From NCBI RefSeq assembly GCF_055900595.2, contig NZ_CM148325.1: 64,000 nt of DNA. One strand, written 5' to 3'. The first letter of the stretch is position 1. Each line of letters begins with the position of its first letter. Below, piece by piece: positions 2,083 to 52,533 of this stretch. The notes below the pieces were generated by a model, which worked only from the letters and a program-made list of their open reading frames with translations, did not search any database and had not been told where the DNA came from. The position numbers and the translations under genes are program-made.

Positions 2083-2266
2083 AGTGGCTCATTCACCGAC
2101 TTATGTCAGCCCCTTCGGGACGTGCTACATAAAATTCGAATGACGCACAACAAGGTGCCTGCCGTCCAACTTCTGATATCAGCTTAGCTATATCAACCCT
2201 CGGGCGAAACGTCGAGTTAGGCACCGCCTTATTCCATAACAAAGCCGGGTTATTCCCGGCTTTGTT
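2083..2266 (+). ncRNA. glmY: GlmY small RNA
   Basis: Starts AGTGGCTCATTCACCGACTTATGTCAGCCCC, which matches GlmY from memory; about 184 nt; ends at hairpin agccggg/cccggct (2242-2260) plus T-rich tail; sits immediately upstream of glrK. Confidence 0.8.
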
Positions 2267-9365: not shown

Positions 9366-10559
9366 TCAAATCTGTCGTAACTGCGCCTCAACATACAAAT
9401 AGCCAATCCCCAGCACCTGCTGTGCGCGGCTTAATTGCCCAAAGCCAATTTGCGTCGATTTCACGCTCGGTCCTTCGTCACGGTCGAACGGGTTAAATCC
9501 TGTCTGGCGAATAATGGAATTAAGCCAGTTCTCACCAAAGGCGCAGCTGCGACCATACAGCCAAATCTGATTAATATTGAGGATGTTGAGGAAGTTATAC
9601 AGACTCAAACCAATGGCGTTGGCACTGCGGTCAACCCAGCTGGTGATCCACGGTTCTCCACTCTGCCAGGCAGCGATTAATTGTGCGGTTGTCAATTTTT
9701 CAGGATCAAGCTGAGTATTCACCGGTTGTGATTTTAGCCATACTCGCGCCTGTTTTTTTAATGCGCTTAACGAGGCGACGGTTTCCAGGCAGCCATAATG
9801 TCCGCAGTCGCAGACGACACCATCCGGATTAACGATGGTGTGACCAATCTGTCCGCTACCATACAAACTGCCGCGATAAATTTGCTCGTTAATCACGAAC
9901 GACGAGCCAATACCGTAATCAACGTTGATCACGCAGAAATCCCGTCCTTGCGAATTATTTTGCCATTTCTCCGCCAGCGCCAGCATCACGCAGTCATTAT
10001 CGACCATCACCCGAATGCCCAGCTTCTCTTCCAGCAGATACTTCACCTCAACCGGCGTTGTCCACGGCGCTTGCGGCATGGTTTGCGACACGCCAGTCAC
10101 TGGATCAACCTGACCGTGGATTGCCAGCGCCAGGTTGATAGTACGGTCCGGCCACAGTTTACGATGACGATGCCAGCATTTTTCGATTTCGGACAACAGA
10201 GCCTGCGGTGTCGGTGCATCAATCTGAAAATACTCAAATTCGCCTTTCGGACTTAAACAGGCATTAGCGACCTGACACTCAATGCTGGTGGGCGTCACGT
10301 TCAGGCACAGCGTCCAGTCACCTTCCGGCGCGATCAGCCATGTACCGCTACTGTGCCCGCGCGTCTGGCTTTCATCGTCGATATTCACCACCCGTTTTTC
10401 GCTTTCCAGCTCCTGCAAAATATTACTGACTGCCGGAATCGAAATTTGCGCCAGCCGGGCCAGCGTTGATTTATTGGCGCGCTTTTGCCGGTACAGCAGT
10501 TCCAGAATCACGCATTTGTTATGGTGGCGAATCTGTTGATTATTAATGCAGGCTCTCAT
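9366..10559 (-). CDS. yphH: ROK-family (NagC/Mlc-like) transcriptional regulator
   Basis: 397 aa from the ATG at 10559 (the GTG two codons upstream is an alternative); N-terminal HTH and ROK sugar-kinase-like fold with the CDCGHYGC zinc motif. Confidence 0.85.
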   Translation of the reverse strand: MRACINNQQIRHHNKCVILELLYRQKRANKSTLARLAQISIPAVSNILQELESEKRVVNIDDESQTRGHSSGTWLIAPEGDWTLCLNVTPTSIECQVANACLSPKGEFEYFQIDAPTPQALLSEIEKCWHRHRKLWPDRTINLALAIHGQVDPVTGVSQTMPQAPWTTPVEVKYLLEEKLGIRVMVDNDCVMLALAEKWQNNSQGRDFCVINVDYGIGSSFVINEQIYRGSLYGSGQIGHTIVNPDGVVCDCGHYGCLETVASLSALKKQARVWLKSQPVNTQLDPEKLTTAQLIAAWQSGEPWITSWVDRSANAIGLSLYNFLNILNINQIWLYGRSCAFGENWLNSIIRQTGFNPFDRDEGPSVKSTQIGFGQLSRAQQVLGIGYLYVEAQLRQI

Positions 10560-10676
10560 CTTCACTAAACCTTGTTTAGTTAATTGCGTGATTATTCCGC
10601 GAAAACATTGCCAGATTGTTCAATACACTGCCACAAATCTTTTAATTCAGTATGTCTTGTTAATATTGAGGGCACC

Positions 10677-13600
10677 ATGACTCCAGTAAAAGTGTGGCAA
10701 GAGCGCGTTGAGATCCCGACTTATGAAACAGGTCCGCAGGATATACACCCTATGTTCCTGGAAAATCGCGTTTATCAGGGATCGTCCGGTGCGGTTTATC
10801 CCTACGGCGTGACCGATACGCTGAGCGAGCAGAAAGTCCTGAAATCCTGGCAAGCGGTGTGGCTGGAAAACGACTATATCAAAGTGATGATCCTGCCGGA
10901 GTTGGGCGGTCGGGTGCATCGCGCTTGGGATAAAGTGAAACAGCGCGATTTTGTCTATCACAATGAAGTCATTAAACCGGCGCTGGTGGGGCTGCTGGGG
11001 CCGTGGATCTCTGGCGGGATTGAGTTTAACTGGCCACAACACCATCGCCCAACCACCTTTATGCCCGTCGATTTCACCATCGAAGCCCATGAAGACGGCG
11101 CACAAACTGTGTGGGTTGGCGAAACGGAGCCGATGCACGGTTTACAGGTGATGACCGGTTTCACACTACGCCCTGACAGGGCGGCGCTGGAGATTGCCAG
11201 CCGCGTCTATAACGGCAATGCCACGCCGCGTCATTTCTTGTGGTGGGCCAACCCGGCAGTGAAAGGTGGCGAAGGGCATCAGAGCGTTTTCCCGCCGGAT
11301 GTAACGGCGGTGTTTGATCACGGCAAACGGGCTGTTTCAGCTTTCCCTATCGCTACCGGCACTTACTACAAAGTGGACTACTCCGCCGGAGTGGATATTT
11401 CTCGCTATAAAAATGTGCCAGTGCCGACTTCGTATATGGCCGAAAAATCGCAGTACGATTTTGTTGGCGCATGGTGTCACGATGAAGATGGCGGTTTGCT
11501 ACACGTTGCCAACCACCACATCGCGCCAGGTAAAAAACAGTGGAGCTGGGGACACAGTGAATTCGGCCAGGCGTGGGATAAGAGCCTGACCGACAATAAC
11601 GGCCCGTATATCGAACTGATGACGGGTATTTTTGCCGATAACCAGCCCGATTTTACCTGGCTTGATGCTTACGAAGAGAAGCGTTTCGAGCAGTATTTCC
11701 TGCCTTATCATTCTCTGGGCATGGTGCAAAACGCCTCCCGCGATGCGGTGATTAAACTCCAGCGTAGCGAGCGGGGGATTGAGTGGGGGCTGTATGCCAT
11801 CTCCCCGTTGAAAGGATGCCGCCTGGCGATCCGCGAAATCGGCAAATGCAACGCGTTGCTCGACGATGCCGTGGCTCTGACGCCAGCGACCGCCATTCAG
11901 GGCGTGTTGCATGGTATCAATCCTGACAGACTAACCATTGAACTCTCCGATGCCGATGGCAATATCGTACTGAGTTATCAGGAACATCAGCCACAAGAGT
12001 TGCCGTTGCCGGACGTCGCCAAAGCGCCACTGGCAGCACAAGAGATTACCAGTACAGATGAAGCCTGGTTTATCGGTCAGCATCTGGAGCAATATCATCA
12101 TGCCAGCCGTTCCCCCTTCGATTACTACCTGCGCGGCGTGGCGCTGGACCCGCTGGATTATCGCTGTAACCTGGCGTTGGCGATGCTGGAATATAACCGC
12201 GCCGACTTCCCGCAAACGGTGGCGTATGCCACTCAGGCGCTAAAACGCGCACATGCGTTGAACAAAAACCCGCAGTGCGGACAGGCGAGTTTAATTCGCG
12301 CCAGTGCTTACGAACGTCAGGGGCAATATCAACAAGCCGAAGAGGATTTCTGGCGTGCGGTCTGGAGCGGAAACAGTAAAGCCGGTGGCTATTATGGTCT
12401 GGCACGGCTGGCGGCGCGTAATGGTCACTTCGACGCGGGTCTGGATTTTTGCCAACAAAGTCTTCGCGCCTGCCCAACCAATCAGGAAGTGCTTTGCCTG
12501 CATAACCTGCTGCTGGTGTTAAGTGGTCGTCAGGACAACGCGCGTTTGCAGCGAGAGAAGTTGCTGCGTGATTATCCGCTGAACGCCACTCTGTGGTGGC
12601 TGAACTGGTTCGATGGTTGTAGCGAATCTGCCCTCGTACAGTGGCGAGGTCTGTGTCAGGGACGCGACGTTAACGCTCTGATGACCGCCGGGCAACTGAT
12701 TAACTGGGGCATGCCCGCTCTGGCGGCAGAGATGCTGAACGCACTGGACTGTCAGCGCACGCTACCGCTTTACCTGCAAGCCAGTTTGCTGCCAAAAGCT
12801 GAACGCGGAGAACTGGTCGCAAAAGCTATTGATGTCTTCCCGCAGTTTGTCCGTTTCCCTAATACGCTGGAAGAAGTGGCGGCGCTGGAGAGTATCGAAG
12901 AGTGCTGGTTTGCCCGGCATTTACTGGCCTGTTTCTACTACAACAAACGCAGCTACGGCAAAGCAATTGCCTTATGGCAACGTTGCGTTGAGATGTCGCC
13001 GGAGTTTGCCGACGGATGGCGTGGGCTGGCAATCCATGCGTGGAATAAGCAGCATGATTATGAACTGGCTGCGCGTTATCTTGATAATGCTTATCAACTT
13101 GCGCCGCAGGATGCACGTTTGCTATTCGAACGGGATTTGCTGGATAAGTTAACCGGTGCTGCACCAGAAAAACGTCTGGCGCGTCTGGAAGCTAATCTGG
13201 AAATCGCCCTGAAGCGTGATGACATGACCGCAGAATTGCTCAATTTGTGGCATCTCACTGGTCAGGCCGACAAAGCGGCAGAGATTCTCGCCACGCGTAA
13301 ATTCCATCCGTGGGAAGGCGGAGAAGGGAAAGTCACCAGTCAGTTTATCCTCAACCAGTTGTTACGCGCCTGGCAATACCTTGATGCCAGACAACCGCAG
13401 CAGGCCAGCGAACTGCTTCATGCCGCGCTGCACTATCCGGAGAATTTAAGCGAAGGCCGTTTACCGGGGCAAACTGACAACGACATCTGGTTCTGGCAGG
13501 CGATATGTGCCAAAGCCCAGGGCGATGAAACTGCAGCGACGCGTTGTTTACGTCTGGCGGCGACGGGTGATCGCACCATTAACATCCACAGTTATTACAA

Positions 13601-13958
13601 CGATCAACCGGTTGATTATCTCTTCTGGCAAGGGATGGCGTTGCGATTACTGGGCGAACAACAAACCGCACAGCAACTGTTTAGTGAAATGAAACAGTGG
13701 GCGCAAGAGATGGCGAAAACCAGTATCGAAGCGGATTTCTTTGCCGTCTCGCAGCCTGACTTGTTGTCGCTGTATGGCGATTTACAACAGCAGCATAAAG
13801 AAAAATGCCTGATGGTGGCGATGCTGGCGGCCGCGGGATTAGGCGAGATTGCGCAATACGAATCTGCTCGCGCTGAATTGACGGCGATTAATCCGGCCTG
13901 GCCGAAAGCGGCATTACTCATCACCGTGATGCCTTTTATTTTTAGCTACGTTCACTAA
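10677..13958 (+). CDS. yphG: large cytoplasmic protein with TPR-like repeats (YphG family), function unknown
   Basis: 1093 aa from the ATG at 10677 with GAGGG ribosome-binding site; the ORF-track TTG at 10584 adds 31 residues with no support; no signal peptide; TPR-like helices in the C-terminal half. Confidence 0.85.
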   Translation: MTPVKVWQERVEIPTYETGPQDIHPMFLENRVYQGSSGAVYPYGVTDTLSEQKVLKSWQAVWLENDYIKVMILPELGGRVHRAWDKVKQRDFVYHNEVIKPALVGLLGPWISGGIEFNWPQHHRPTTFMPVDFTIEAHEDGAQTVWVGETEPMHGLQVMTGFTLRPDRAALEIASRVYNGNATPRHFLWWANPAVKGGEGHQSVFPPDVTAVFDHGKRAVSAFPIATGTYYKVDYSAGVDISRYKNVPVPTSYMAEKSQYDFVGAWCHDEDGGLLHVANHHIAPGKKQWSWGHSEFGQAWDKSLTDNNGPYIELMTGIFADNQPDFTWLDAYEEKRFEQYFLPYHSLGMVQNASRDAVIKLQRSERGIEWGLYAISPLKGCRLAIREIGKCNALLDDAVALTPATAIQGVLHGINPDRLTIELSDADGNIVLSYQEHQPQELPLPDVAKAPLAAQEITSTDEAWFIGQHLEQYHHASRSPFDYYLRGVALDPLDYRCNLALAMLEYNRADFPQTVAYATQALKRAHALNKNPQCGQASLIRASAYERQGQYQQAEEDFWRAVWSGNSKAGGYYGLARLAARNGHFDAGLDFCQQSLRACPTNQEVLCLHNLLLVLSGRQDNARLQREKLLRDYPLNATLWWLNWFDGCSESALVQWRGLCQGRDVNALMTAGQLINWGMPALAAEMLNALDCQRTLPLYLQASLLPKAERGELVAKAIDVFPQFVRFPNTLEEVAALESIEECWFARHLLACFYYNKRSYGKAIALWQRCVEMSPEFADGWRGLAIHAWNKQHDYELAARYLDNAYQLAPQDARLLFERDLLDKLTGAAPEKRLARLEANLEIALKRDDMTAELLNLWHLTGQADKAAEILATRKFHPWEGGEGKVTSQFILNQLLRAWQYLDARQPQQASELLHAALHYPENLSEGRLPGQTDNDIWFWQAICAKAQGDETAATRCLRLAATGDRTINIHSYYNDQPVDYLFWQGMALRLLGEQQTAQQLFSEMKQWAQEMAKTSIEADFFAVSQPDLLSLYGDLQQQHKEKCLMVAMLAAAGLGEIAQYESARAELTAINPAWPKAALLITVMPFIFSYVH

Positions 13959-14054
13959 ACACTATTAACTGTAATATTTGAGCGGCACGCGCTGCCGCTC
14001 ACGCTCAAATAATTAAAATAAGCCGTTGTAAATAAAAACCCTACAGGAGGCACT

Positions 14055-15038
14055 ATGCCTAAAAAAATGAGAACAACCCGTAATCTATTATTAATGGCTA
14101 CGCTATTAGGTAGCACACTATTTGCCAACGCTGCGGAAAAAGAAATGACCATTGGTGCAATATACCTTGATACCCAGGGATATTACGCTGGAGTGCGCCA
14201 GGGCGTTCAGGATGCGGCAAAAGATTCTTCAGTACAGGTACAGTTAATTGAAACTAACGCCCAGGGCGATATTTCGAAAGAAAGTACCTTTGTTGATACC
14301 CTCGTGGCGCGTAATGTCGATGCCATTATTTTGTCGGCAGTGTCTGAAAATGGCAGTAGCCGCACCGTTCGCCGCGCCAGTGAGGCGGGTATTCCGGTGA
14401 TTTGCTACAACACCTGTATTAATCAAAAGGGTGTCGATAAATATGTCTCGGCATATCTGGTTGGCGATCCGCTGGAATTTGGTAAAAAACTGGGTAACGC
14501 TGCCGCCGATTATTTTATTGCTAACAAAATTGACCAGCCGAAAATTGCTGTCATCAATTGCGAAGCCTTTGAAGTTTGTGTGCAACGACGTAAAGGGTTT
14601 GAAGAAGTATTAAAAGCCCGCGTTCCCGGCGCGAAAATTGTCGCTAATCAGGAAGGGACTGTTTTAGATAAAGCGATTTCTGTTGGTGAAAAACTGATTA
14701 TCTCCACGCCAGATCTCAATGCCATTATGGGGGAATCGGGTGGAGCGACACTCGGCGCGGTAAAAGCGGTACGTAATCAAAATCAGGCTGGAAAAATTGC
14801 CGTTTTCGGTTCGGATATGACCACTGAAATTGCACAGGAACTGGAAAATAACCAGGTGCTGAAAGCGGTAGTGGATATTTCCGGTAAGAAAATGGGCAAT
14901 GCTGTTTTCGCGCAAACATTGAAGGTTATCAATAAACAAGCCGACGGTGAAAAAGTGATTCAGGTGCCAATCGATCTCTATACCAAAACGGAAGACGGTA
15001 AACAGTGGCTGGCAACGCACGTTGATGGTCTGCCCTAA
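14055..15038 (+). CDS. yphF: ABC transporter periplasmic sugar-binding protein
   Basis: 327 aa; signal peptide; periplasmic-binding-protein type I fold; AGGAGG ribosome-binding site. Confidence 0.88.
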   Translation: MPKKMRTTRNLLLMATLLGSTLFANAAEKEMTIGAIYLDTQGYYAGVRQGVQDAAKDSSVQVQLIETNAQGDISKESTFVDTLVARNVDAIILSAVSENGSSRTVRRASEAGIPVICYNTCINQKGVDKYVSAYLVGDPLEFGKKLGNAAADYFIANKIDQPKIAVINCEAFEVCVQRRKGFEEVLKARVPGAKIVANQEGTVLDKAISVGEKLIISTPDLNAIMGESGGATLGAVKAVRNQNQAGKIAVFGSDMTTEIAQELENNQVLKAVVDISGKKMGNAVFAQTLKVINKQADGEKVIQVPIDLYTKTEDGKQWLATHVDGLP

Positions 15039-15060
15039 TCGCTGATTCGCAGAGGTCCCT

Positions 15061-16572
15061 ATGTTCACGGCAACAGAGGCAGTTCCGGTAGCAAAAGTGG
15101 TGGCAGGAAATAAGCGTTACCCCGGTGTCGTTGCGCTGGATAACGTTAACTTCACGCTCAATAAAGGCGAAGTTCGCGCGCTGTTAGGTAAAAACGGTGC
15201 GGGAAAATCGACCCTCATTCGAATGCTTACCGGTAGCGAACGTCCGGATAGCGGTGATATCTGGATTGGCGAGACGCGACTGGAAGGCGACGAAGCTACG
15301 CTGACTCGCCGTGCCGCTGAACTGGGGGTACGCGCGGTTTATCAGGAATTAAGTCTGGTGGAGGGGCTGACGGTGGCGGAAAACCTCTGCCTCGGTCAGT
15401 GGCCCCGCCGCAACGGCATGATTGATTACCTGCAAATGGCGCAGGATGCCCAACGTTGCTTACAGGCGCTGGGCGTTGACGTTAGTCCTGAACAACTTGT
15501 TTCGACACTAAGCCCGGCGCAAAAGCAACTGGTGGAAATTGCGCGGGTGATGAAAGGCGAGCCGCGCGTGGTCATTCTTGATGAACCTACCAGTTCGCTT
15601 GCCAGTGCGGAAGTTGAACTGGTGATCAGCGCTGTGAAAAAGATGTCGGCACTGGGCGTGGCGGTGATTTATGTCAGCCACCGGATGGAAGAAATTCGCC
15701 GCATTGCCTCCTGTGCCACCGTTATGCGCGATGGTCAGGTGGCGGGCGATGTGATGCTCGAAAACACCTCTACGCATCATATTGTGTCGCTAATGCTCGG
15801 GCGCGATCACGTTGATATTGCGCCGGTTGCCCCTCAGGAAATTATGGATCAAGCCGTGCTGGAAGTCCGTGCGTTACGCCATAAGCCCAAGCTGGAGGAT
15901 ATCAGCTTTACGCTACGTCGCGGCGAAGTGCTCGGCATTGCTGGCCTGCTGGGGGCAGGGCGCAGTGAATTGCTGAAGGCGATTGTTGGGCTGGAGACGT
16001 ATGAACAGGGCGAAATTGTTATCAACGGCGAGAAAATCACGCGCCCCGATTACGGCGAGATGCTGAAACGCGGCATTGGCTATACGCCAGAAAACCGCAA
16101 AGAAGCGGGGATCATTCCCTGGCTGGGCGTTGACGAAAATACGGTACTGACCAATCGGCAAAAAATCAGCGCCAACGGTGTGCTGCAATGGTCCACCATC
16201 CGCCGCCTGACCGAAGAGGTGATGCAGCGGATGACGGTCAAGGCAGCCAGTAGCGAAACGCCTATTGGCACGCTTTCTGGCGGCAATCAGCAAAAAGTGG
16301 TGATCGGTCGTTGGGTCTATGCCGCCAGCCAGATTTTATTGCTCGACGAGCCAACGCGCGGCGTCGATATCGAAGCCAAACAGCAGATTTACCGTATTGT
16401 CCGCGAGCTGGCTGCCGAAGGGAAAAGCGTGGTGTTTATCTCCAGTGAAGTGGAGGAGTTGCCGCTGGTGTGCGACCGCATCCTGTTATTACAGCACGGT
16501 ACGTTCTCGCAGGAGTTTCACTCGCCGGTCAATGTGGATGAGCTGATGTCCGCCATTCTGTCTGTGCACTGA
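15061..16572 (+). CDS. yphE: ABC transporter ATP-binding protein with two fused nucleotide-binding domains
   Basis: 503 aa; Walker A GKNGAGKST and signature LSGGNQQK. Confidence 0.9.
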   Translation: MFTATEAVPVAKVVAGNKRYPGVVALDNVNFTLNKGEVRALLGKNGAGKSTLIRMLTGSERPDSGDIWIGETRLEGDEATLTRRAAELGVRAVYQELSLVEGLTVAENLCLGQWPRRNGMIDYLQMAQDAQRCLQALGVDVSPEQLVSTLSPAQKQLVEIARVMKGEPRVVILDEPTSSLASAEVELVISAVKKMSALGVAVIYVSHRMEEIRRIASCATVMRDGQVAGDVMLENTSTHHIVSLMLGRDHVDIAPVAPQEIMDQAVLEVRALRHKPKLEDISFTLRRGEVLGIAGLLGAGRSELLKAIVGLETYEQGEIVINGEKITRPDYGEMLKRGIGYTPENRKEAGIIPWLGVDENTVLTNRQKISANGVLQWSTIRRLTEEVMQRMTVKAASSETPIGTLSGGNQQKVVIGRWVYAASQILLLDEPTRGVDIEAKQQIYRIVRELAAEGKSVVFISSEVEELPLVCDRILLLQHGTFSQEFHSPVNVDELMSAILSVH

Positions 16573-16596
16573 TGAATTTTACCGAGGAACCTGAAG

Positions 16597-17595
16597 ATGT
16601 CTGCTTCGTCATTACCATTGCCGCAGGGCAAGAGCGTCTCGCTCAAACAATTTGTCAGTCGCCATATTAATGAGATCGGTTTGCTGGTGGTAATCGCCAT
16701 TCTTTATCTGGTCTTCTCCCTGAATGCGCCTGGCTTTATCTCATTGAATAACCAAATGAACGTGCTGCGCGATGCTGCCACCATCGGGATCGCCGCCTGG
16801 GCGATGACGCTGATTATTATCTCCGGTGAAATTGATGTCAGCGTTGGACCGATGGTGGCTTTTGTCTCGGTGTGCCTGGCATTTTTGCTGCAATTTAACG
16901 TTCCGCTGGCGATTGCTTGTCTGCTGGTGTTGCTGTTAGGCGCGCTGATGGGGACGCTGGCCGGCGTGCTGCGCGGCGTGTTTAACGTGCCCAGTTTCGT
17001 TGCCACGCTGGGGCTGTGGAGCGCCCTGCGCGGAATGGGGCTGTTTATGACTAACGCCCTGCCAGTGCCGATTGACGAAAACGAGGTACTGGACTGGCTG
17101 GGGGGACAATTTCTCGGTGTGCCAGTATCCGCGCTGATCATGATGGTGTTGTTTGCGCTGTTTGTGTTCATCAGCCGCAAAACCGCCTTCGGGCGCTCGG
17201 TTTTTGCTGTTGGCGGTAATGCGACGGCAGCGCAGTTGTGCGGTATCAACGTTCGTCGGGTGCGCATTCTTATTTTTACCCTTTCGGGATTATTAGCGGC
17301 GGTGACCGGCATTTTGCTGGCAGCTCGCCTCGGTTCTGGTAACGCAGGTGCGGCAAACGGTCTGGAGTTTGACGTCATCGCTGCGGTCGTGGTCGGCGGT
17401 ACGGCACTTTCCGGCGGTCGCGGTTCCTTGTTCGGTACGTTGCTTGGTGTGCTGGTGATTACGCTAATCGGTAACGGTCTGGTGTTGCTCGGGATTAACT
17501 CTTTTTTCCAGCAGGTGGTGCGCGGCGTCATCATCGTGGTGGCGGTTCTGGCGAATATCTTGCTGACCCAGCGAAGCAGTAAAGCGAAACGCTAA
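16597..17595 (+). CDS. yphD: ABC transporter permease (sugar/ribose-type)
   Basis: 332 aa, hydrophobic multi-span protein. Confidence 0.88.
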   Translation: MSASSLPLPQGKSVSLKQFVSRHINEIGLLVVIAILYLVFSLNAPGFISLNNQMNVLRDAATIGIAAWAMTLIIISGEIDVSVGPMVAFVSVCLAFLLQFNVPLAIACLLVLLLGALMGTLAGVLRGVFNVPSFVATLGLWSALRGMGLFMTNALPVPIDENEVLDWLGGQFLGVPVSALIMMVLFALFVFISRKTAFGRSVFAVGGNATAAQLCGINVRRVRILIFTLSGLLAAVTGILLAARLGSGNAGAANGLEFDVIAAVVVGGTALSGGRGSLFGTLLGVLVITLIGNGLVLLGINSFFQQVVRGVIIVVAVLANILLTQRSSKAKR

Positions 17596-17660
17596 ACCTT
17601 AACGCCCCTGGCGCGGGTGCGGCAGGGATGAAAATTAATCGTATTGTTAATGAGGGAATT

Positions 17661-18722
17661 ATGAAAACGATGCTGGCAGCTTATTTACCAGGAAATTCGA
17701 CCGTCGATCTGCGGGAAGTTGCGGTGCCGACACCGGGGATTAACCAGGTACTGATTAAAATGAAATCCTCCGGGATTTGCGGAAGCGATGTCCACTATAT
17801 CTATCATCAACACCGCGCCACAGCGGCGGCTCCCGATAAACCGTTATACCAGGGATTTATCAACGGTCATGAACCGTGCGGGCAAATTGTGGCGATGGGG
17901 CAAGGTTGTCGCCATTTTAAAGAGGGCGACCGCGTGCTGGTGTATCACATTTCTGGCTGTGGTTTTTGCCCGAACTGCCGTCGCGGTTTTCCTATCTCTT
18001 GTACTGGCGAAGGAAAAGCCGCTTACGGCTGGCAGCGTGACGGCGGTCATGCCGAATACCTGCTGGCGGAAGAAAAAGATCTGATCCTCCTGCCGGACGC
18101 GCTGAGCTATGAAGATGGTGCGTTTATCAGTTGCGGCGTTGGTACAGCGTATGAAGGGATTTTGCGCGGCGAAGTTTCCGGCAGTGATAACGTGCTGGTG
18201 GTCGGTCTGGGGCCGGTCGGGATGATGGCGATGATGCTGGCGAAAGGTCGCGGTGCAAAAAGGATCATCGGCGTTGATATGCTGCCGGAACGTCTGGCGA
18301 TGGCGAAACAGTTAGGGGTGATGGATCACGGCTATTTAGCAACGACCGAAGGTCTGCCGCAGATTATCGCCGAACTCACCCACGGTGGCGCGGATGTTGC
18401 GCTCGATTGTTCCGGTAATGCCGCAGGTCGCTTACTGGCGTTGCAATCCACTGCTGACTGGGGACGGGTGGTTTACATCGGGGAAACCGGAAAAGTGGAG
18501 TTCGAGGTTAGCGCTGATCTGATGCATCATCAACGGCGGATTATTGGCTCCTGGGTGACCAGTCTGTTCCATATGGAAAAATGCGCCCACGATTTAACGG
18601 ACTGGAAACTGTGGCCGCGTAATGCCATTACCCATCGCTTCTCACTGGAACAGGCAGGAGATGCCTATGCGCTGATGGCGAGCGGTAAATGCGGGAAAGT
18701 TGTGATTAACTTCCCGGATTAA
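17661..18722 (+). CDS. yphC: zinc-dependent alcohol/polyol dehydrogenase (MDR family)
   Basis: 353 aa from the ATG at 17661 with GAGGGAA ribosome-binding site; zinc ligands GICGSD...GHE; Rossmann GLGPVG. Confidence 0.88.
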   Translation: MKTMLAAYLPGNSTVDLREVAVPTPGINQVLIKMKSSGICGSDVHYIYHQHRATAAAPDKPLYQGFINGHEPCGQIVAMGQGCRHFKEGDRVLVYHISGCGFCPNCRRGFPISCTGEGKAAYGWQRDGGHAEYLLAEEKDLILLPDALSYEDGAFISCGVGTAYEGILRGEVSGSDNVLVVGLGPVGMMAMMLAKGRGAKRIIGVDMLPERLAMAKQLGVMDHGYLATTEGLPQIIAELTHGGADVALDCSGNAAGRLLALQSTADWGRVVYIGETGKVEFEVSADLMHHQRRIIGSWVTSLFHMEKCAHDLTDWKLWPRNAITHRFSLEQAGDAYALMASGKCGKVVINFPD

Positions 18723-18733
18723 GGAGTCAGCGG

Positions 18734-19606
18734 ATGACCATCTATACCTTATCTCACGGGCCGCTAAAGCTGGACGTTTCTGACCGGGGCGGCGTCATCG
18801 AAGGCTTCTGGCGTGACGCGACGCCGCTCTTACGTCCCGGTAAAAAAAGCGGTGTGGCAACCGATGCCTCTTGTTTTCCGCTGGTGCCGTTTGCAAACCG
18901 GGTGAGCGGCAACCATTTTGTCTGGCAGGGGCGTGAGTATCAACTGCAACCGAATATTGAATGGGATGCGCACTATCTGCACGGCGACGGCTGGCTGGGC
19001 GAGTGGCAATGTGTCTCGCGCAGCGATGAAAGCTTGTGTCTGGTATATGAACATCGCACAGGTATTTATCAGTATCGGGTAAGTCAGGCGTTTCATTTAA
19101 CGGCAGATACGCTGACGGTGACGCTCTCTGTCACCAACCAAGGGACAGAGACGCTGCCATTTGGTACCGGCTGGCATCCTTATTTTCCGTTGTCACCACA
19201 AACGCGGATTCAGGCGCAGGCGAGCGGTTACTGGCTGGAGCGGGAGCAGTGGCTGGCGGGTGAGTTTTGCGAGCAGCTACCGCAGGCGCTGGATTTCAAC
19301 CAGTTCGCGCCGTTGCCGCACCAGTGGGTGAACAATGGCTTTGCCGGATGGAATGGTCAGGCCCGCATCGAGCAGCCGCAGGAGGGTTACGCTATCACTA
19401 TGGAAACGATGCCGCCCGCGCCGTGCTATTTCATCTTTGTCTCCGACCCCGCGTTTGATAAAGGGTACGCGTTTGATTTCTTCTGTCTGGAGCCGATGAG
19501 TCATGCGCCGGATGACCATCATCGCCCGGAAGGGGGTGATCTCATTGCGCTTGCGCCGGGGGAATCAACAACCTCAGAGATGTCGTTGCGGGTGGAGTTG
19601 CTGTAA
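18734..19606 (+). CDS. yphB: aldose 1-epimerase (mutarotase) family protein
   Basis: 290 aa; sits at the end of the sugar-uptake operon. Confidence 0.85.
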   Translation: MTIYTLSHGPLKLDVSDRGGVIEGFWRDATPLLRPGKKSGVATDASCFPLVPFANRVSGNHFVWQGREYQLQPNIEWDAHYLHGDGWLGEWQCVSRSDESLCLVYEHRTGIYQYRVSQAFHLTADTLTVTLSVTNQGTETLPFGTGWHPYFPLSPQTRIQAQASGYWLEREQWLAGEFCEQLPQALDFNQFAPLPHQWVNNGFAGWNGQARIEQPQEGYAITMETMPPAPCYFIFVSDPAFDKGYAFDFFCLEPMSHAPDDHHRPEGGDLIALAPGESTTSEMSLRVELL

Positions 19607-19613
19607 TTTATAA

Positions 19614-19706
19614 AATGCCTGATGCGACGCTTGCCGCGTCTTATCAGGCCTACAATCGGTGTTGGAACGGTAGGCCGGATCTGGCGTTCACGCCGCATCC
19701 GGCATC
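19614..19706. repeat. REP cluster between yphB and yphA
   Basis: tgcctgatgcgacgcttgccgcgtcttatcaggcctaca and gtaggccggatctggcgttcacgccgcatccggca. Confidence 0.8.
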
Positions 19707-19710
19707 TTTC

Positions 19711-20133
19711 CTAACGTCGATCGAGAGAAATCGCTCCAGGCCCGGTAATTGCCAACAGCAGGAATGCGCCAGCGATACTGACATTCTTCCAGAAATTAAT
19801 CATATTTGGCCCAACCGCATCGCCGGTCATATCCCAGTAATGGTGACCAATCACCGCCGTACCCAGCGTGTAGAAAATAAACAGCACCGCCAGCGGACGG
19901 GTGAAAAAGCCAAGCACGATTAAAATCGCGGCGGGCACTTCCATAACTACCGCAATAATCGCTGCCAGCATCGGCATTGGCGCGCCCAGCGAGGCCATAT
20001 ATTGGACCGTACCGTCAAAGCCCATCATTTTGGGAAAACCAAAAATAATGAAAATTAAGACCACGGCGATACGGGCAATTAATAACAAAACGGGGCGGGC
20101 AGCACCAAAATCAAAATAACGTAGTGTGTTCAT
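19711..20133 (-). CDS. yphA: DoxX-family inner-membrane protein
   Basis: 140 aa from the internal ATG (MNTLRYFDF); four hydrophobic segments. Confidence 0.8.
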
Positions 20134-20229
20134 AACCAATCCCTTTGCAAGATAATGTGATTTAAACGTAATACACACTCTGGTACCTCGCCACGCCCCA
20201 GGCGTTGAGATATTCGCTAATTATCCTGG

Positions 20230-21441
<1,212 letters not shown>

Positions 21442-22254
21442 TTAAAGATCCAGCCCAGCCGCTACGTGGCGAATGCCGCGAATCGCTAAACCCGCATCAG
21501 CGTTGATCATCACACCGCTTAATGCGCGATTATTGCGCCGCGATGCCAACATCACATACGGACCCGTAAAATCCGCCGGTTGCGGGAAAAATTGCAGCGG
21601 TAATATGGCGGCAATTTTCTCCGGCGTCAGAGACTGCATTATCGAGGTTTCACTTTGCCCGAGCGCCTGTGGGCCGCGTAGATCGCTGGCCATACCGCAT
21701 GGCCCAACGCCATTCACCCGTACTTTAGGTGCCAGTTCATAGGCCAGTTGGCGAATAAGTCCGGTTGCGGCATGTTTACTGGCGGTGTACAGCGGGCCAC
21801 CGCCGCCGGGATACCAGGCAGCATTGGACAGGGTGAAAATCATGCTGCCTTCACTGGCGATTAACGCCGGAGCGCAGGCTTTTGCGCCCAGCAGGTAACC
21901 GAGTACGTTGACGTTAAACAGCTCGTGGAAGCCGGTTTCGAGCGTCTCTGCGGGAGTATTAACCAGTGAGGCATTGTGATCCCAGATGCCCGCATTGCCG
22001 ATAAAACAATCCAGCTTGCCAGAACGAGTCAGGATCTGATCGACCGCGCGTTGATAATCGGCATAGCAGGTCACGTTACCTTCCACCGCCAGAATATGTT
22101 CGCCAAATCGCTGACGCAGACTGGCGACTTTTGCCGCCGACAGTTCCAGCGTGGCAACCTGCGCACCTTCTTCGATAAATCGCTCGACCAGTGCCAGTCC
22201 TAATCCCGATCCGCCACCAGTAATAAAGATGGACTCGTTATGCAGATCGCTCAT
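21442..22254 (-). CDS. hcaB: 2,3-dihydroxy-2,3-dihydrophenylpropionate dehydrogenase (short-chain dehydrogenase)
   Basis: 270 aa; ITGGGSGLG Rossmann motif. Confidence 0.92.
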
Positions 22255-22570
22255 GGCTGCGCCTCCGGTAAGTCGATGAAGATATCACCACCTTCAACGT
22301 GTACTGGATAAGTGGTTAGCGGATCGGTGGCGGGCAGGCATAACGCTTTCCCCGTTTTCAGGCAAAAACTGGCGGCGTGCAGTGGGCACTCTACCGTAGC
22401 ATCATCTTCCAGATACCCTTCTGACATCGACGCATTACCATGACTGCAACGATCGTTAATGGCATAAAACTCGCCGCCAACGTTGAACAGGGCGATGACG
22501 GGCGAGGTATCGATCCGGAGAGCCTCACCCTCCGGCACATCCGCAACGGGACACGCATAAATTCGATTCA

Positions 22571-22571
<1 letters not shown>
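22251..22571 (-). CDS. hcaC: Rieske ferredoxin of the dioxygenase
   Basis: 106 aa; CSHGN...CPLH Rieske motif; 4-nt overlap with hcaB. Confidence 0.92.
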
Positions 22572-24483
<1,912 letters not shown>

Positions 24484-24582
24484 CTATTTTTGTGCCATAA
24501 GGATGTTGCTGGTTGGTTGCTGATATGTGAAATAGTTAATTTCTACCAACTGAGACGTTTTTTCGATAACAGGGGGAAGGTG

Positions 24583-25473
24583 ATGGAACTACGGCATTTA
24601 CGCTATTTCGTCGCAGTGGCGCAGGCACTGAACTTTACCCGTGCGGCGGAAAAACTGCATACCTCACAGCCTTCGTTAAGCAGCCAGATCCGCGATCTCG
24701 AAAACTGTGTTGGTGTTCCGCTACTGGTACGTGATAAACGTAAAGTCGCGTTGACGGCGGCGGGAGAATGTTTTCTCCAGGACGCGCAGGCAATCCTGGA
24801 ACAAGCGGAAAAGGCCAAACAACGAGCGCGGAAAATTGTTCAGGAAGATAAGCATTTAATCATCGGTTTCGTTCCATCGGCGGAAGTGAATTTACTGCCA
24901 AAAGTATTGCCCATGTTCCGACTGAAACAGCCAGAAACTTTGATCGAATTGGTGAGTTTAATTACCACGGAACAGGAAGAAAAAATTCGCCGTGGTGAAC
25001 TGGATGTCGGCTTAATGCGCCATCCTGTTTATAGCCCGGAGATTGATTATCTGGAACTTTTTGACGAACCATTAGTGGTGGTGTTGCCGGTTGATCATCC
25101 TTTAGCACAAGAAAAAGAGATCACCGCCGCGCAGCTGGATGGCGTGAATTTCGTTAGTACCGATCCGGCGTATTCCGGTTCGCTTGCGCCGATCGTTAAG
25201 GAGTGGTTTGCGCAAGAAAACAGCCAGCCGAATATCGTCCAGGTGGCAACCAATATTCTGGTAACGATGAATTTGGTGGGGATGGGGCTTGGCGTAACTT
25301 TGATACCCGGTTATATGAATAATTTTAATACCGGGCAGGTGGTATTTCGGCCAATTGCCGGAAATGTGCCTTCCATTGCCCTACTAATGGCGTGGAAGAA
25401 AGGCGAAATGAAACCGGCATTACGAGATTTCATCGCCATTGTGCAGGAACGTTTGGCAAGCGTAACGGCATAA
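24583..25473 (+). CDS. hcaR: LysR-family activator of the hca operon
   Basis: 296 aa from the ATG at 24583 with GGGGGAAGG ribosome-binding site; N-terminal HTH MELRHLRYFVAVA; divergent from hcaE. Confidence 0.92.
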   Translation: MELRHLRYFVAVAQALNFTRAAEKLHTSQPSLSSQIRDLENCVGVPLLVRDKRKVALTAAGECFLQDAQAILEQAEKAKQRARKIVQEDKHLIIGFVPSAEVNLLPKVLPMFRLKQPETLIELVSLITTEQEEKIRRGELDVGLMRHPVYSPEIDYLELFDEPLVVVLPVDHPLAQEKEITAAQLDGVNFVSTDPAYSGSLAPIVKEWFAQENSQPNIVQVATNILVTMNLVGMGLGVTLIPGYMNNFNTGQVVFRPIAGNVPSIALLMAWKKGEMKPALRDFIAIVQERLASVTA

Positions 25474-25633: not shown

Positions 25634-26773
25634 ATGGTTTTGCAATCCACGCGCTGGTTGGCGCTCGGTTATTTCACATACTTTTTTAGTTACGGCATTT
25701 TTCTACCTTTCTGGAGCGTCTGGCTTAAGGGGATTGGCTTAACGCCAGAAACTATCGGCCTGTTATTGGGGGCTGGTCTGGTTGCCCGTTTTCTCGGGAG
25801 TTTGATCATCGCGCCCCGCGTTAGCGATCCTTCCCGCCTGATTTCCGCCTTGCGCGTACTGGCACTGCTGACACTTCTCTTTGCTGTCGCCTTCTGGGCG
25901 GGGGCGCATGTAGCGTGGTTGATGGTGGTGATGATTGGCTTTAACCTCTTTTTCTCACCGCTGGTACCGTTGACCGATGCACTGGCGAATACATGGCAAA
26001 AACAGTTCCCGCTTGATTACGGCAAAGTGCGACTGTGGGGCTCGGTGGCGTTTGTCATTGGCTCGGCGCTGACAGGCAAACTGGTCAGTATGTTGGATTA
26101 TCGGGTGATCCTCGCGCTGTTGACGTTGGGCGTGGCGTCCATGCTGCTCGGATTTCTCATTCGTCCAACGATTCAGCCACAAGGGGCTAGCCGTCAGCAG
26201 GAGAGCACGGGAGGGCCAGCCTGGCTGACACTGGTCCGCCAGAACTGGCGCTTTCTGGCCTGCGTTTGTTTATTACAGGGAGCGCATGCAGCCTATTACG
26301 GTTTTAGCGCTATTTACTGGCAGGCAGCTGGGTATTCTGCTTCAGCGGTGGGCTATTTGTGGTCGCTGGGCGTGGTGGCAGAAGTCATTATTTTTGCGCT
26401 GAGTAATAAACTTTTCCGCCGTTGTAGTGCACGCGATATGCTGCTGATCTCGGCAATTAGCGGCGTAATGCGCTGGGGAATTATGGGAGCAACGACGGCG
26501 TTGCCGTGGTTGATAGTAGTGCAAATTCTGCATTGCGGCACCTTCACGGTCTGCCACCTGGCGGCCATGCGTTATATTGCCGCCCGCCAGGGTAGCGAAG
26601 TCATTCGTTTGCAGGCGGTTTACTCTGCCGTTGCAATGGGCGGTAGTATCGCCATCATGACCGTCTTCGCCGGTTTCCTGTATCAATATCTGGGCCACGG
26701 CGTGTTCTGGGTGATGGCGCTGGTGGCGCTTCCGGCAATGTTCTTGCGCCCGAAAGTTGTTCCCTCATGCTGA
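25634..26773 (+). CDS. hcaT: MFS transporter (putative phenylpropionate permease)
   Basis: 379 aa, 12 transmembrane segments. Confidence 0.9.
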   Translation: MVLQSTRWLALGYFTYFFSYGIFLPFWSVWLKGIGLTPETIGLLLGAGLVARFLGSLIIAPRVSDPSRLISALRVLALLTLLFAVAFWAGAHVAWLMVVMIGFNLFFSPLVPLTDALANTWQKQFPLDYGKVRLWGSVAFVIGSALTGKLVSMLDYRVILALLTLGVASMLLGFLIRPTIQPQGASRQQESTGGPAWLTLVRQNWRFLACVCLLQGAHAAYYGFSAIYWQAAGYSASAVGYLWSLGVVAEVIIFALSNKLFRRCSARDMLLISAISGVMRWGIMGATTALPWLIVVQILHCGTFTVCHLAAMRYIAARQGSEVIRLQAVYSAVAMGGSIAIMTVFAGFLYQYLGHGVFWVMALVALPAMFLRPKVVPSC

Positions 26774-28045
26774 TTCGAGCATTTTGCGGATCTGCTCCTG
26801 TTGGTGTGTTGTCAGCGTCAGATCTGTGTAGATCAGCGGTGGTGAAAAGAGCGGTAACGGCGTGGTGTAAGGCGCAATAATCAGTGCCGCGCCGCGTGGA
26901 GCACCTCTCTGCAAAAATGCTTTTACCGACATATGCTTAATGTTGAGCGGCAGTAACGTTAGTTCACGTAACTGCTGCTCAATCTGCGCTTCACGCTCGC
27001 TATCATTCCCGGTCAGTAGAATAATCTGTTTTTCATGCAGGTCGTTTTCCTGCATTAGCCAGGCACCGAAAATCACCGCGACCAGACCGCTTTCCTCATC
27101 AGAAAGATGGACGCTGTATTCACTTTCAAATCCGGTCAGCGCCGCGCGGGTGGTGCGCACCAGGCGTGGGTACAGTCTGGAGAACTCTTCTGGCAGGGTG
27201 TTATCAATACCGATGGCAAACAAACTGCGATTTAACGCCTGGGCGAGGTGAGTATAAAGCTGATCTAATAACCCCTGTTCATCATAAAAACGAACATTTC
27301 CCAGCTCACGAAAATGGTTTACCAGACGTTTGATAGACTGACGCAATTGTCTATCCCGCTGATGCGCATCCCGAATTGGATCGGGAACTCGCAACATGGA
27401 AAAAAGTAATGCCATAAATAGTGGCTCATCAGGCGGTACAGGCTGGAGCGCCCGACGCTGCCAGTGGCGTCCAATTTCCTGCGCTACCTGAAATTCCAGG
27501 CAGGATTCTGCCCAGCGACGTTGGAGCGGATTAAACTGAGGCGTAATGCCAGCGTGGTGTTGCAGCAAGCAATATTGCAGATACAGACACAGGAAATGAA
27601 TATCGCGCGATTCAAAGCGTTTTTGTAGCCGTCGAGAGCAGAGATTCACTAACGCTTGTAGATTGGTATCGTCGTAAAAGTTACGCGAAATTCCGCGCCG
27701 CTTTAGTTCACTCTTCAGAGCAGGTGTGAATTGGCTGGTAATAAATGACGGACACAGACGGAAACCACGTCGTAGCCAATGAAATAAACACAAACGTTGG
27801 TTAAGCACTGTGCCTTCAACCCGGTAGCTACCGTCATAACCAGTAGTCAGTGTGAGTTGATGATAGCGCAGGATCTCCCGTCCTGTTTCGCTGATATCAA
27901 GACAGGCAATATCATCATCCACACCATTAAGCTCGCTGAAAGTTGCCGTGGTGGCGGTCAACCCCGGCTGAAAGAGTGTCAGCAAGATCTGGCAGCGGCG
28001 CTGGGGAGCCGAAAGGACAGATGGTGAAGCAAGCGTAGGCATCAT
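26765..28045 (-). CDS. csiE: stationary-phase inducible protein CsiE
   Basis: 426 aa from the internal ATG (MMPTLA...); PRD-type regulatory-domain protein; 3' end overlaps hcaT by 9 nt. Confidence 0.85.
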   Translation of the reverse strand: MMPTLASPSVLSAPQRRCQILLTLFQPGLTATTATFSELNGVDDDIACLDISETGREILRYHQLTLTTGYDGSYRVEGTVLNQRLCLFHWLRRGFRLCPSFITSQFTPALKSELKRRGISRNFYDDTNLQALVNLCSRRLQKRFESRDIHFLCLYLQYCLLQHHAGITPQFNPLQRRWAESCLEFQVAQEIGRHWQRRALQPVPPDEPLFMALLFSMLRVPDPIRDAHQRDRQLRQSIKRLVNHFRELGNVRFYDEQGLLDQLYTHLAQALNRSLFAIGIDNTLPEEFSRLYPRLVRTTRAALTGFESEYSVHLSDEESGLVAVIFGAWLMQENDLHEKQIILLTGNDSEREAQIEQQLRELTLLPLNIKHMSVKAFLQRGAPRGAALIIAPYTTPLPLFSPPLIYTDLTLTTHQQEQIRKMLESA

Positions 28046-28235
28046 CTGTAGATCTCCCATAAGCATAATTGATAAGAATAGCTAAAGTTTGCCCAGGGAA
28101 ATGGCGAAGGGAATGCTAATCATCAGAAATGTTGGCAAGCGTCACAGAATTTTTCTCATCTTAAACTGTTCTGACCAGTGGATTAGCTCGTCTAAAGGTG
28201 GATTTGTGAATGATTATCGCGCTAGCGATCATGGG

Positions 28236-31664: not shown

Positions 31665-31800
31665 CCTGTTTCGTGTTGCATCTGCGTTGACTGTACATAC
31701 TCACTCCGGTCACTTACTTATGTAAGCTCCCGGAGATTCGTAAGTTTGTCAACTTGCTGAAACCCGAAACAGTTAGGTTAAAGATAACAAGATATTAGAA
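31665..31800. repeat. ERIC-like element inside the iscR-iscS intergenic region
   Basis: 31698-31741 tactcactccggtcacttacttatgtaagctcccggagattcg matches the conserved ERIC central inverted repeat; outer boundaries are approximate. Confidence 0.6.
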
Positions 31801-31895
31801 TCAGGCCGGGGCGTCTCGCGCTCCGTAAACACGGTCGTACATCCAGCCGGTAGCCTGGTTCCTTGCATTGAGTGATGTACGGAGTTTATAGAGCA

Positions 31896-51304: not shown

Positions 51305-52423
51305 ATGCATAACCAGGCTCCAATTCAACGTAGAAAATCAACACGTATTTACGTTGGGAATGTGCCGATTGGCGATGGTGCCCCCATCGCCGTACAGTCC
51401 ATGACCAATACGCGTACGACAGACGTCGAAGCTACGGTCAATCAAATTAAGGCGCTGGAACGTGTTGGCGCTGATATCGTCCGTGTCTCCGTACCGACGA
51501 TGGACGCGGCAGAAGCGTTCAAGCTCATCAAACAACAGGTTAACGTACCGCTGGTGGCTGATATCCACTTTGACTATCGCATTGCGCTGAAAGTAGCGGA
51601 ATACGGGGTCGATTGTTTGCGTATTAACCCTGGCAATATCGGTAATGAAGAGCGTATTCGCATGGTGGTTGACTGCGCGCGCGATAAAAACATTCCGATC
51701 CGTATTGGCGTTAACGCTGGATCGCTGGAAAAAGATCTGCAAGAAAAGTATGGCGAACCGACGCCGCAGGCGTTGCTGGAATCTGCCATGCGTCATGTTG
51801 ATCATCTCGATCGCCTGAACTTCGATCAGTTCAAAGTCAGCGTGAAAGCGTCTGACGTCTTCCTCGCTGTTGAGTCTTATCGTTTGCTGGCAAAACAGAT
51901 CGATCAACCGCTGCATCTTGGGATCACCGAAGCGGGCGGCGCACGTAGTGGGGCAGTAAAATCTGCCATTGGTTTAGGCCTGCTGCTGTCTGAAGGCATC
52001 GGCGACACGCTGCGCGTATCGCTGGCGGCCGATCCGGTCGAAGAGATCAAAGTCGGTTTCGATATTTTGAAATCGCTGCGTATCCGTTCGCGCGGGATCA
52101 ACTTCATCGCCTGCCCGACCTGTTCGCGTCAGGAGTTTGACGTTATCGGTACGGTTAACGCCCTGGAGCAACGCCTGGAAGATATCATCACTCCGATGGA
52201 CGTTTCGATTATCGGCTGCGTGGTGAATGGACCAGGTGAGGCGCTGGTTTCTACACTCGGCGTCACCGGCGGCAACAAGAAAAGCGGCCTCTATGAAGAT
52301 GGCGTGCGCAAAGACCGTCTGGACAACAACGATATGATCGACCAGCTGGAAGCGCGCATTCGTGCGAAAGCCAGCCAACTGGATGAAGCGCGTCGAATTG
52401 ACATTCAGCAGGTTGAAAAATAA
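51305..52423 (+). CDS. ispG: 4-hydroxy-3-methylbut-2-enyl diphosphate synthase (flavodoxin)
   Basis: 372 aa; C-terminal [4Fe-4S] Cys motif CPTCSR...C. Confidence 0.95.
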
Positions 52424-52533
52424 TAACGTGATGGGAAGCGCCTCGCTTCCCGTGTATGATTGAACCCGCATGGCTCCCGAAATATTGAGGGGCGCGTTGA
52501 GGGTTCATTTTTATATTCAGAAAGAGAATAAAC

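Follow-up and report, generated by a model that had tools for sequence, protein, structure and literature searches.

Convergent genes whose coding sequences run into each other at their 3' ends raise the question of whether the shared end affects the expression of either gene. This question is posed here by hcaT and csiE, two genes within a window of 64,000 nucleotides (the whole stretch of DNA that was analysed, from RefSeq contig NZ_CM148325.1); an earlier note on this DNA had reported that the two overlap without a terminator between them, and had proposed that they could interfere transcriptionally. The gene identities, their convergent orientation, their coordinates and the extent of the overlap were confirmed from the open reading frames and the RefSeq annotation (Table 1). 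The two coding sequences lie on opposite strands with facing 3' ends and have 9 bp in common (5'-TCATGCTGA-3'), and thus belong to the convergent overlapping pairs, for which at least one shared base is required. Both are genuine coding genes, as indicated by Pfam domains (MFS_1_like in HcaT, E = 5e-55; PRD in CsiE, E = 2.6e-25, in two stretches), by orthologues at 36 loci and by the RefSeq annotation. The overlap itself was already known; it is contained in the reference annotation, in a published Term-seq table and in a published list of excludons.

Table 1. Features of the hcaT/csiE locus, in window coordinates.
Feature	Position	Strand	Description	Source
hcaT CDS	25634..26773	+	379-aa MFS transporter, putative 3-phenylpropionate transporter; TGA at 26771-26773	ORF and RefSeq
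csiE CDS	26765..28045	-	426-aa PRD-domain stationary-phase-inducible protein; TGA at 26767-26765	ORF and RefSeq
Shared stretch TCATGCTGA	26765..26773	both	plus strand, HcaT Ser378-Cys379-stop; minus strand, CsiE Ser425-Ala426-stop	window sequence and ORFs
csiE 3' UTR	26718..26764	-	opposite the final hcaT codons; mRNA 3' end at 26718	Term-seq
csiE transcription start	28079	-	K-12 2,665,401; promoter TTCCCT-18-AACTTT, sigma-S/CRP dependent	PMC10301672
Weak hairpin ATGCT-GATTCG-AGCAT, then TTTTG	26767..26786	+	spans the hcaT stop	fold
17-bp inverted repeat, peptide IEQQLRELTLLPLNI	26943..26982	both	within csiE codons, 170-210 nt past the hcaT stop	

On the plus strand the hcaT reading frame ends with ...CCC TCA TGC TGA, and on the minus strand that of csiE ends with ...CTC GAA TCA GCA TGA. 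The codons of the two genes stand in exact antiparallel register across the shared stretch, so that each TGA complements a serine codon TCA of the partner; the csiE stop pairs with the HcaT Ser378 codon, and the hcaT stop with the CsiE Ser425 codon. Since in-frame stop codons fix the ends of both genes, an alternative end would need a change in the sequence; an overlap-removing alternative end of hcaT or csiE, which had been named as a way of refuting the overlap, is therefore not applicable. The start of csiE is ambiguous (the longest open reading frame begins at 28066, 21 nt further upstream than the annotated start at 28045), with no effect on the overlap.

Within E. coli, the junction is conserved almost without exception. 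RefSeq NZ_CP098223.1 carries the same 9-bp overlap and is 100% identical to the window across the 2.9 kb compared; when 2.9 kb around the site serve as the query, 5,424 of the 5,426 complete E. coli genomes are matched, with 100% identity to at least eight genomes among the matches listed. An 81-bp query centred on the junction likewise has one full-length hit, at 95% identity or more, in each of 5,424/5,426 genomes. In the RefSeq annotation of K-12 MG1655, csiE (b2535, 2665435..2666715, plus strand) and hcaT (b2536, 2666707..2667846, minus strand) overlap by 9 bp; relative to the window, the K-12 junction has two differences, both outside the central 60 bp. The 9-bp overlap is annotated in the same way in BL21-Gold, in a soil isolate and in an O6:H16 strain, which were picked from the low-identity end of the ranking.

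A scan with CsiE, using one genome per species, yielded 36 loci from Escherichia, Citrobacter, Salmonella (arizonae and diarizonae), Intestinirhabdus, Pseudenterobacter, Kosakonia, Leclercia, Enterobacter, Pseudescherichia, Silvania, Dryocola, Cedecea and Buttiauxella, and overlap lengths were obtained by extending each hcaT and csiE frame to its stop. The orthologues of the two genes show 59-98% amino acid identity across the 36 loci; an HcaT orthologue (74-96% amino acid identity) is convergent with csiE in 35 of them, and one of these convergent loci is apparently frameshifted. In 31 of the 34 intact pairs the genes overlap or abut, by 0, 4, 6, 9 or 14 bp. Nine bp are shared in most Escherichia, where the 9-bp stretch of the window is identical in K-12, E. 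albertii, E. whittamii and SCPM-O-B-8794, and outside this genus in C. amalonaticus, C. sedlakii, a Citrobacter MAG, Intestinirhabdus and Pseudenterobacter. The overlap measures 6 bp in Salmonella arizonae/diarizonae (TCATGA) and in three Citrobacter (TCATAG), 4 bp (CTAA, TTAG, CTAG or TTAA) in nine genomes (Kosakonia, Leclercia, Silvania, Pseudescherichia, two Cedecea-like genomes and C. freundii M-21), and 14 bp in seven Buttiauxella. The genes abut at 0 bp (TAATCA) in Enterobacter soli and in the divergent "E. coli" E69. In E69, a 3-nt AAT duplication creates a TAA right after CsiE Glu424, and CsiE is two residues shorter, with loss of the overlap; this allele had no megablast match in the 5,426 E. 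coli genomes, a comparison for which E69 is too divergent, and it is unseen in E. coli proper. Spacers between hcaT and csiE occur in three genomes only (38, 89 and 186 bp) and consist of REP-like palindromes in two of them and of an ERIC-like element in the third. At the protein level, the lineages agree in the CsiE C-terminus (...IRKMLES, give or take one residue) and differ in the length and sequence of the HcaT tail beyond LRPKV, as would be expected from drift of the hcaT stop.

These comparisons show that hcaT and csiE have been converging end-to-end since before the sampled genera of the Enterobacteriaceae split. Among the overlaps all three reading phases are found, which argues against selection for one particular overlap; a spacer-less ancestral junction, the occurrence of all phases, and the tolerance of repeats and of overlap loss are predicted by neutral drift of stop codons, not by a sequence-specific device. 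The likely explanation is a commonplace short overlap, tail to tail, between two independently transcribed core genes, which neutral stop-codon drift has made and keeps, and not a product of regulatory selection. As no promoter or terminator is needed between csiE and hcaT, the spacer is zero or negative, and the stop positions shift from lineage to lineage, with overlaps of 0, 4, 6, 9 or 14 bp. As a caveat, selection could also explain why a spacer of zero or less has been kept almost everywhere for so long. Overlaps of this kind are well represented in E. coli, with 75 convergent cases among 663 overlapping adjacent gene pairs (Huvet and Stumpf, 2014; PMC4161906). As in other short convergent overlapping pairs of bacterial genomes, genes on opposite strands share their 3'-terminal bases, including both stops, and the overlap, which originates when stop codons move, varies in length between related species. 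Nothing essential distinguishes hcaT/csiE from a typical convergent pair; the spacer of zero or less spans unusually many genera, as judged from this pair alone. The comparison across genera provides a small, tidy case of stop-codon drift at a junction without a spacer.

The transcripts of the two genes overlap further than their coding sequences. Term-seq of K-12 (Adams, 2021, eLife; PMC7815308) places a csiE 3' end at 2666762 (+), which is 47 nt beyond the stop and inside hcaT, and classifies it as "primary csiE / antisense hcaT"; the entry appears in the LB OD600 2.0 sheet only (supplementary file 1), in other words at the density at which csiE is induced. By the convention of this table, checked on the thrL entry, the 3' end is position 51 of the printed 61-mer, and the K-12 coordinates of the 3' end and the transcription start were moved to the window through gap-free alignments. 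From start to 3' end, the csiE mRNA measures about 1.36 kb; of this mRNA, the final 56 nt are the complement of the terminal part of the hcaT coding sequence. No 3' end of hcaT is listed in the same Term-seq tables. In the preferred reading, the hcaT transcript would behave like that of csiE, each running beyond its own stop into the antisense strand of the partner, and with both genes switched on their mRNAs would share at least 56 complementary nt (26718-26773). The two genes are transcribed independently: besides its mapped promoter, csiE has an E-sigmaS ChIP-seq peak (PMC4447067) and is induced at stationary phase (Marschall and Hengge-Aronis, 1995, as cited in later work); hcaT has its own promoter, up-mutations of which matter in genome-reduced strains and in long-term stationary survival (PMC10249474). 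The hcaT mRNA is one of three that were chosen as qPCR references for being invariant whatever the strain, temperature or growth stage (PMC3110127).

The strongest competitor of stop-codon drift, although an unlikely one, is a functional convergent excludon, in which the lack of a spacer is selected and one gene is repressed when its partner is transcribed, through either RNA polymerase collision or RNase III cleavage of the 3'-3' duplex, so that hcaT is coupled to the sigma-S/CRP-induced csiE. The layout resembles that of the excludons of Listeria and S. aureus, and of those mapped in E. coli (PMC12288877), in that convergent 3' ends overlap, here with the csiE 3' end 47 nt into hcaT. The pair is indeed on the ExcludonFinder list for MG1655, where 165 convergent excludons were each called in at least 50% of the 58 RNA-seq sets (PMC12288877); yet this method evaluates coverage overlap only, a requirement that an overlap of coding sequences satisfies automatically. 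The persistence of the end-to-end layout in 31/34 intact pairs across genera also speaks for an excludon, but core-genome synteny alone explains the conserved adjacency, and neither the length nor the phase of the overlap is conserved; repeat insertions are tolerated, and E69 does without any overlap. Both genes are linked to stationary phase, csiE through its induction and hcaT through the promoter-up mutations connected with long-term survival (PMC10249474); however, hcaT is among the three most invariant mRNAs over growth stages, temperatures and strains (PMC3110127). Finally, as to RNase III products captured with p19, in the entries listed the csiE clusters are confined to the 5' half of the gene and are attributed to internal antisense starts, and no cluster is listed at the junction or under hcaT (PMC7373196).

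The proposal of the earlier note that hcaT and csiE could interfere with each other has to be divided. The overlap of the transcripts is real, as documented by Term-seq and by ExcludonFinder, whereas regulatory interference between the genes is unproven and probably weak, considering the invariant hcaT mRNA and the overlap-free E69. Any interference would be expected to be weak at the levels at which csiE and hcaT are expressed. Mutually exclusive expression in particular is indirectly disfavoured, being hard to square with an invariant hcaT mRNA next to a stationary-phase csiE. A different form of coupling can be imagined, in which csiE and hcaT are a selected couple: stationary-phase transcription of csiE, driven by sigma-S and CRP, would act on the stability or completion of the 3' end of an otherwise constitutive hcaT mRNA, and HcaT, whose gene outside Escherichia goes with csiE and not with the hca catabolic genes, would have a stationary role broader than phenylpropionate uptake. 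This scenario is quite improbable.

How transcription ends at a junction without a spacer is a separate matter. The observation that no terminator lies between the genes holds, as there is no intergenic DNA, and no canonical intrinsic terminator was found within approximately 150 nt inside either partner. A consensus terminator scan found none at the hcaT or the csiE end; downstream of both stops, the G+C-rich stem-loop with a following U-tract that marks an intrinsic terminator is missing. The 160-180 nt after each stop fold no better than shuffled sequences (z = -1.65 and -0.34), and RNAalifold of 18 genera-level sequences gave 0 conserved pairs past the csiE stop and 8 marginal pairs (-3.5 kcal/mol) past the hcaT stop. 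Near the stops, an inverted-repeat search likewise turned up no more than the weak 5-bp hairpin at the hcaT stop, and an Rfam search of the junction returned no known RNA family. Bidirectional intrinsic terminators are reportedly found between convergent genes; hcaT and csiE resemble such sites in their convergence and in termination from both sides within a very short space, but differ from them in that no G+C-rich hairpin stands between an A-tract and a U-tract.

Because no intrinsic signal was found, the untranslated RNA may instead be ended by a factor-dependent mechanism, most likely Rho, followed by 3' trimming. Rho is known to terminate untranslated and antisense RNAs, which are then trimmed at their 3' ends. 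The csiE transcript is similar to RNAs produced in this way: its 3' end (...GCCGGAAGCGCCACCAGCG) lies past the stop in antisense RNA and has no U-tract, only a modest hairpin about 11 nt upstream, and the fold of the 3' UTR is unremarkable (-9.7 kcal/mol, z = +0.36). In contrast to Rho-terminated RNAs, the excess of C over G near the stops is mild for csiE and nil for hcaT, and Rho dependence is no more than plausible for both. In numbers, the 78 nt that follow the csiE stop have a C/G of 1.29, with C-rich stretches from about +220, and the first approximately 120 nt past the hcaT stop one of 0.35-0.54, with C-rich stretches from about +180; as an indication of Rho loading, the composition near the stops does not clearly help, since it is mildly favourable for csiE and gives nothing for the first approximately 120 nt after hcaT. 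A bicyclomycin table from exponential phase, when csiE is off, contains no Rho-termination region near the locus (PMC7815308), and a literature search for csiE together with Rho-dependent termination found nothing relevant.

Intrinsic termination by hairpins embedded in the coding sequence of the partner, either the ATGCT/AGCAT hairpin with its UUUU, or the 17-bp inverted repeat acting on hcaT read-through, or both, is a very doubtful alternative. In Escherichia, the small hairpin and its U4 overlap the hcaT stop and resemble a terminator; but the stem has only 5 bp with two G-C pairs, and in its 29-nt context it folds at -6.4 kcal/mol with z = -0.94, a value that 40 of 200 shuffles equal or surpass. 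No proper U-tract follows it, it is not called by the terminator scan, it is absent outside Escherichia, and it is dictated by the CsiE codons Met-Leu...Ser-Ala-stop; as a terminator it was rejected for its weakness and its restriction to Escherichia. The inverted repeat is the sole strong hairpin that a read-through transcript of hcaT could reach (-26.3 kcal/mol on the plus strand, z = -4.5), and in most species it folds better on the hcaT-sense strand. The pairing occurs in all genera; across 36 sequences 82.2% of its cells are paired, and 19 cells have changed on both sides, compared with 9.5 +/- 2.8 in shuffles. Column-preserving shuffles, however, retain 81.0% pairing, nearly the same value, and the pairing can thus be ascribed to the invariant peptide IEQQLRELTLLPLNI; the covariation consists mainly of TTA/TTA versus CTG/CTG leucine codons, and such double-sided changes can come from the codon preference of a lineage. 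The repeat ranks about 34th among the local structures of the window, it is followed by no proper U-tract, it is likewise not called by the scan, and the Term-seq tables contain no 3' end near the corresponding K-12 position 2666490 (-) (PMC7815308). A function for this repeat is doubtful, and as the missing hcaT terminator it stays a candidate of low probability.

The suspicion that one of the reading frames ends wrongly, through a frameshift or a sequencing error, and that no real overlap exists has practically no chance of being right and is refuted by the conservation data, in that the junction is identical in the window, in K-12 and in three other Escherichia lineages, its 81 bp recur at 95% identity or more in 5,424 genomes, HcaT and CsiE align with their orthologues to the last residues, and the ambiguous csiE start sits at the opposite end of the gene.

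As an annotated member of a common class, with its transcript overlap catalogued, the hcaT/csiE overlap carries little biological weight; two practical consequences can be named. Since the two genes share bases, deletion of hcaT or csiE can damage the partner, and the original Keio primer for csiE deletes the 3' end of hcaT (PMC9431181). The wide use of hcaT as a qPCR reference has a further implication, namely that, where an assay does not distinguish the strands, amplicons close to its 3' end could detect cDNA from csiE read-through.

The comparison across genera also bears on the name of hcaT. In genera outside Escherichia, the approximately 2.8 kb beyond hcaT showed neither hcaR nor hcaE, which identifies the hcaR-hcaEFCBD-yphA-H block (window 9366-25473) as an insertion on the Escherichia side, and suggests that hcaT was named from a secondary, Escherichia-specific neighbourhood. 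A name of this origin fits the finding that an hcaT deletion mutant still grows on 3-phenylpropionate (PMC10249474). A further feature of the locus outside Escherichia is that hcaT stays beside csiE, and that in several genera glyA directly follows.

Outside Escherichia (loci L007-L038 of the comparison), an hcaT orthologue adjoins csiE, and neither hcaR nor hcaE was found within the roughly 2.8 kb past hcaT that were searched in these loci. The gene that follows hcaT at a distance of no more than about 1.5 kb is glyA in Salmonella arizonae/diarizonae, Intestinirhabdus, Pseudenterobacter and Kosakonia, and likewise in Enterobacter soli, Dryocola, Silvania, Cedecea colo and C. freundii M-21. 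This gene order suggests that the hca/yph block of the window was inserted, on the Escherichia side, between hcaT and glyA, and that the role of hcaT may be older than phenylpropionate uptake.

Within this pair, CsiE evolves much faster than its neighbor HcaT; in other Escherichia species, identity to the window's proteins is 84-89% for CsiE and 95-96% for HcaT, and in Buttiauxella about 60% and about 75%, respectively. At the nucleotide level, the 2.9-kb region around the junction is only 90-95% identical to the window in 4,757 E. coli genomes; for the junction itself, identity does not fall below 95% in any matching E. coli genome.

Spacers between csiE and hcaT occur in only three of the 36 Enterobacteriaceae loci, and are filled with repeats in every case (see table). 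A different variant is found in the strain deposited as 'E. coli' E69, where an AAT duplication (GAA TAA TCA GCA TGA) ends CsiE two residues early; csiE and hcaT therefore abut, with zero overlap. A megablast search of 5,426 complete E. coli genomes found nothing matching the 81-bp junction of E69, so this strain is a member of a divergent lineage. In C. amalonaticus AUH_CA_2023_1 (locus L036, 4330-6416), the tblastn matches to both genes were fragmented, with csiE matching from residue 110 only and hcaT over residues 1-217 only, followed by an early stop; this fragmentation suggests that csiE and hcaT are frameshifted here, by assembly error or by pseudogenization.

Antisense transcription is documented inside csiE: RNase III-cleaved dsRNA clusters in approximately the first 660 nt of the gene were recovered by p19 dsRNA capture, and the same study lists three antisense transcription start sites within csiE at U00096.2 positions 2664156, 2663957 and 2663579, minus strand (PMC7373196). 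No convincing -10/-35 pair was seen upstream of the start near 27350. The antisense RNA from within csiE has no connection with the overlap that the gene shares with hcaT at its 3' end. A 17-bp inverted repeat, also inside csiE, folds at -26.3 kcal/mol (z -4.5), and 82% of cells are paired across 36 Enterobacteriaceae sequences; the peptide that it encodes, IEQQLRELTLLPLNI, is nearly invariant, and this fixed peptide mostly accounts for the pairing. Folding and pairing across these sequences made no function of the repeat evident. Rfam matches above the gathering score mark four RNA families elsewhere in the window, none of them close to the csiE/hcaT junction.

Two further points concern annotation and strain resources. 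The K-12 annotation includes IroK (b4706), a 21-residue protein whose gene ends at the same 3' coordinate as hcaR (K-12 MG1655 locus L002, 6007-6072); RefSeq does not list it for the genome that matches the window. According to a published curation of the Keio collection, the original deletion primer for csiE was misplaced and also deletes the 3' end of hcaT, with the consequence that the last transmembrane helix of HcaT is lost and the penultimate one disrupted; the Keio library appears to contain both the wrong and the corrected csiE mutant (PMC9431181), which matters to users of Keio csiE or hcaT strains.

Coordinates of features in the window and in the compared loci (L-numbers)
Feature	Position	Strand	Remarks
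GlmY sRNA	window 2083-2230	+	Rfam
hca/yph block	window 9366-25473		hcaR to yphH; ~16 kb
IroK-equivalent stretch	window 25408-25473	+	last 66 nt of hcaR
hcaT 3' end (site of the Keio csiE primer problem)	window 26600-26773		
17-bp inverted repeat	window 26943-26982		overlies the IEQQLRELTLLPLNI codons of csiE; arms TTGAGCGGCAGTAACGT / ACGTAACTGCTGCTCAA
Antisense starts inside csiE	window near 27350, 27549, 27927	+	PMC7373196
csiE dsRNA cluster region	window ~27384-28047		5' half of csiE; PMC7373196
iscR stability element (iscRS)	window 31785-31894	+	Rfam
ryfA	window 39270-39574	-	Rfam; adjoins annotated small toxin gene timP
sroE	window 52423-52514	+	Rfam
E69 junction	L004 3625-3633		CP089930.1; 3-nt AAT duplication
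csiE-hcaT spacer, Dryocola	L022 5237-5325		REP-like palindromes
csiE-hcaT spacer, Cedecea sulfonylureivorans	L023 5237-5274		REP-like palindromes
csiE-hcaT spacer, Buttiauxella sp. A111	L031 4152-4337		ERIC-like element, core atccccaggagcttactcaagtaagtgactggggtga
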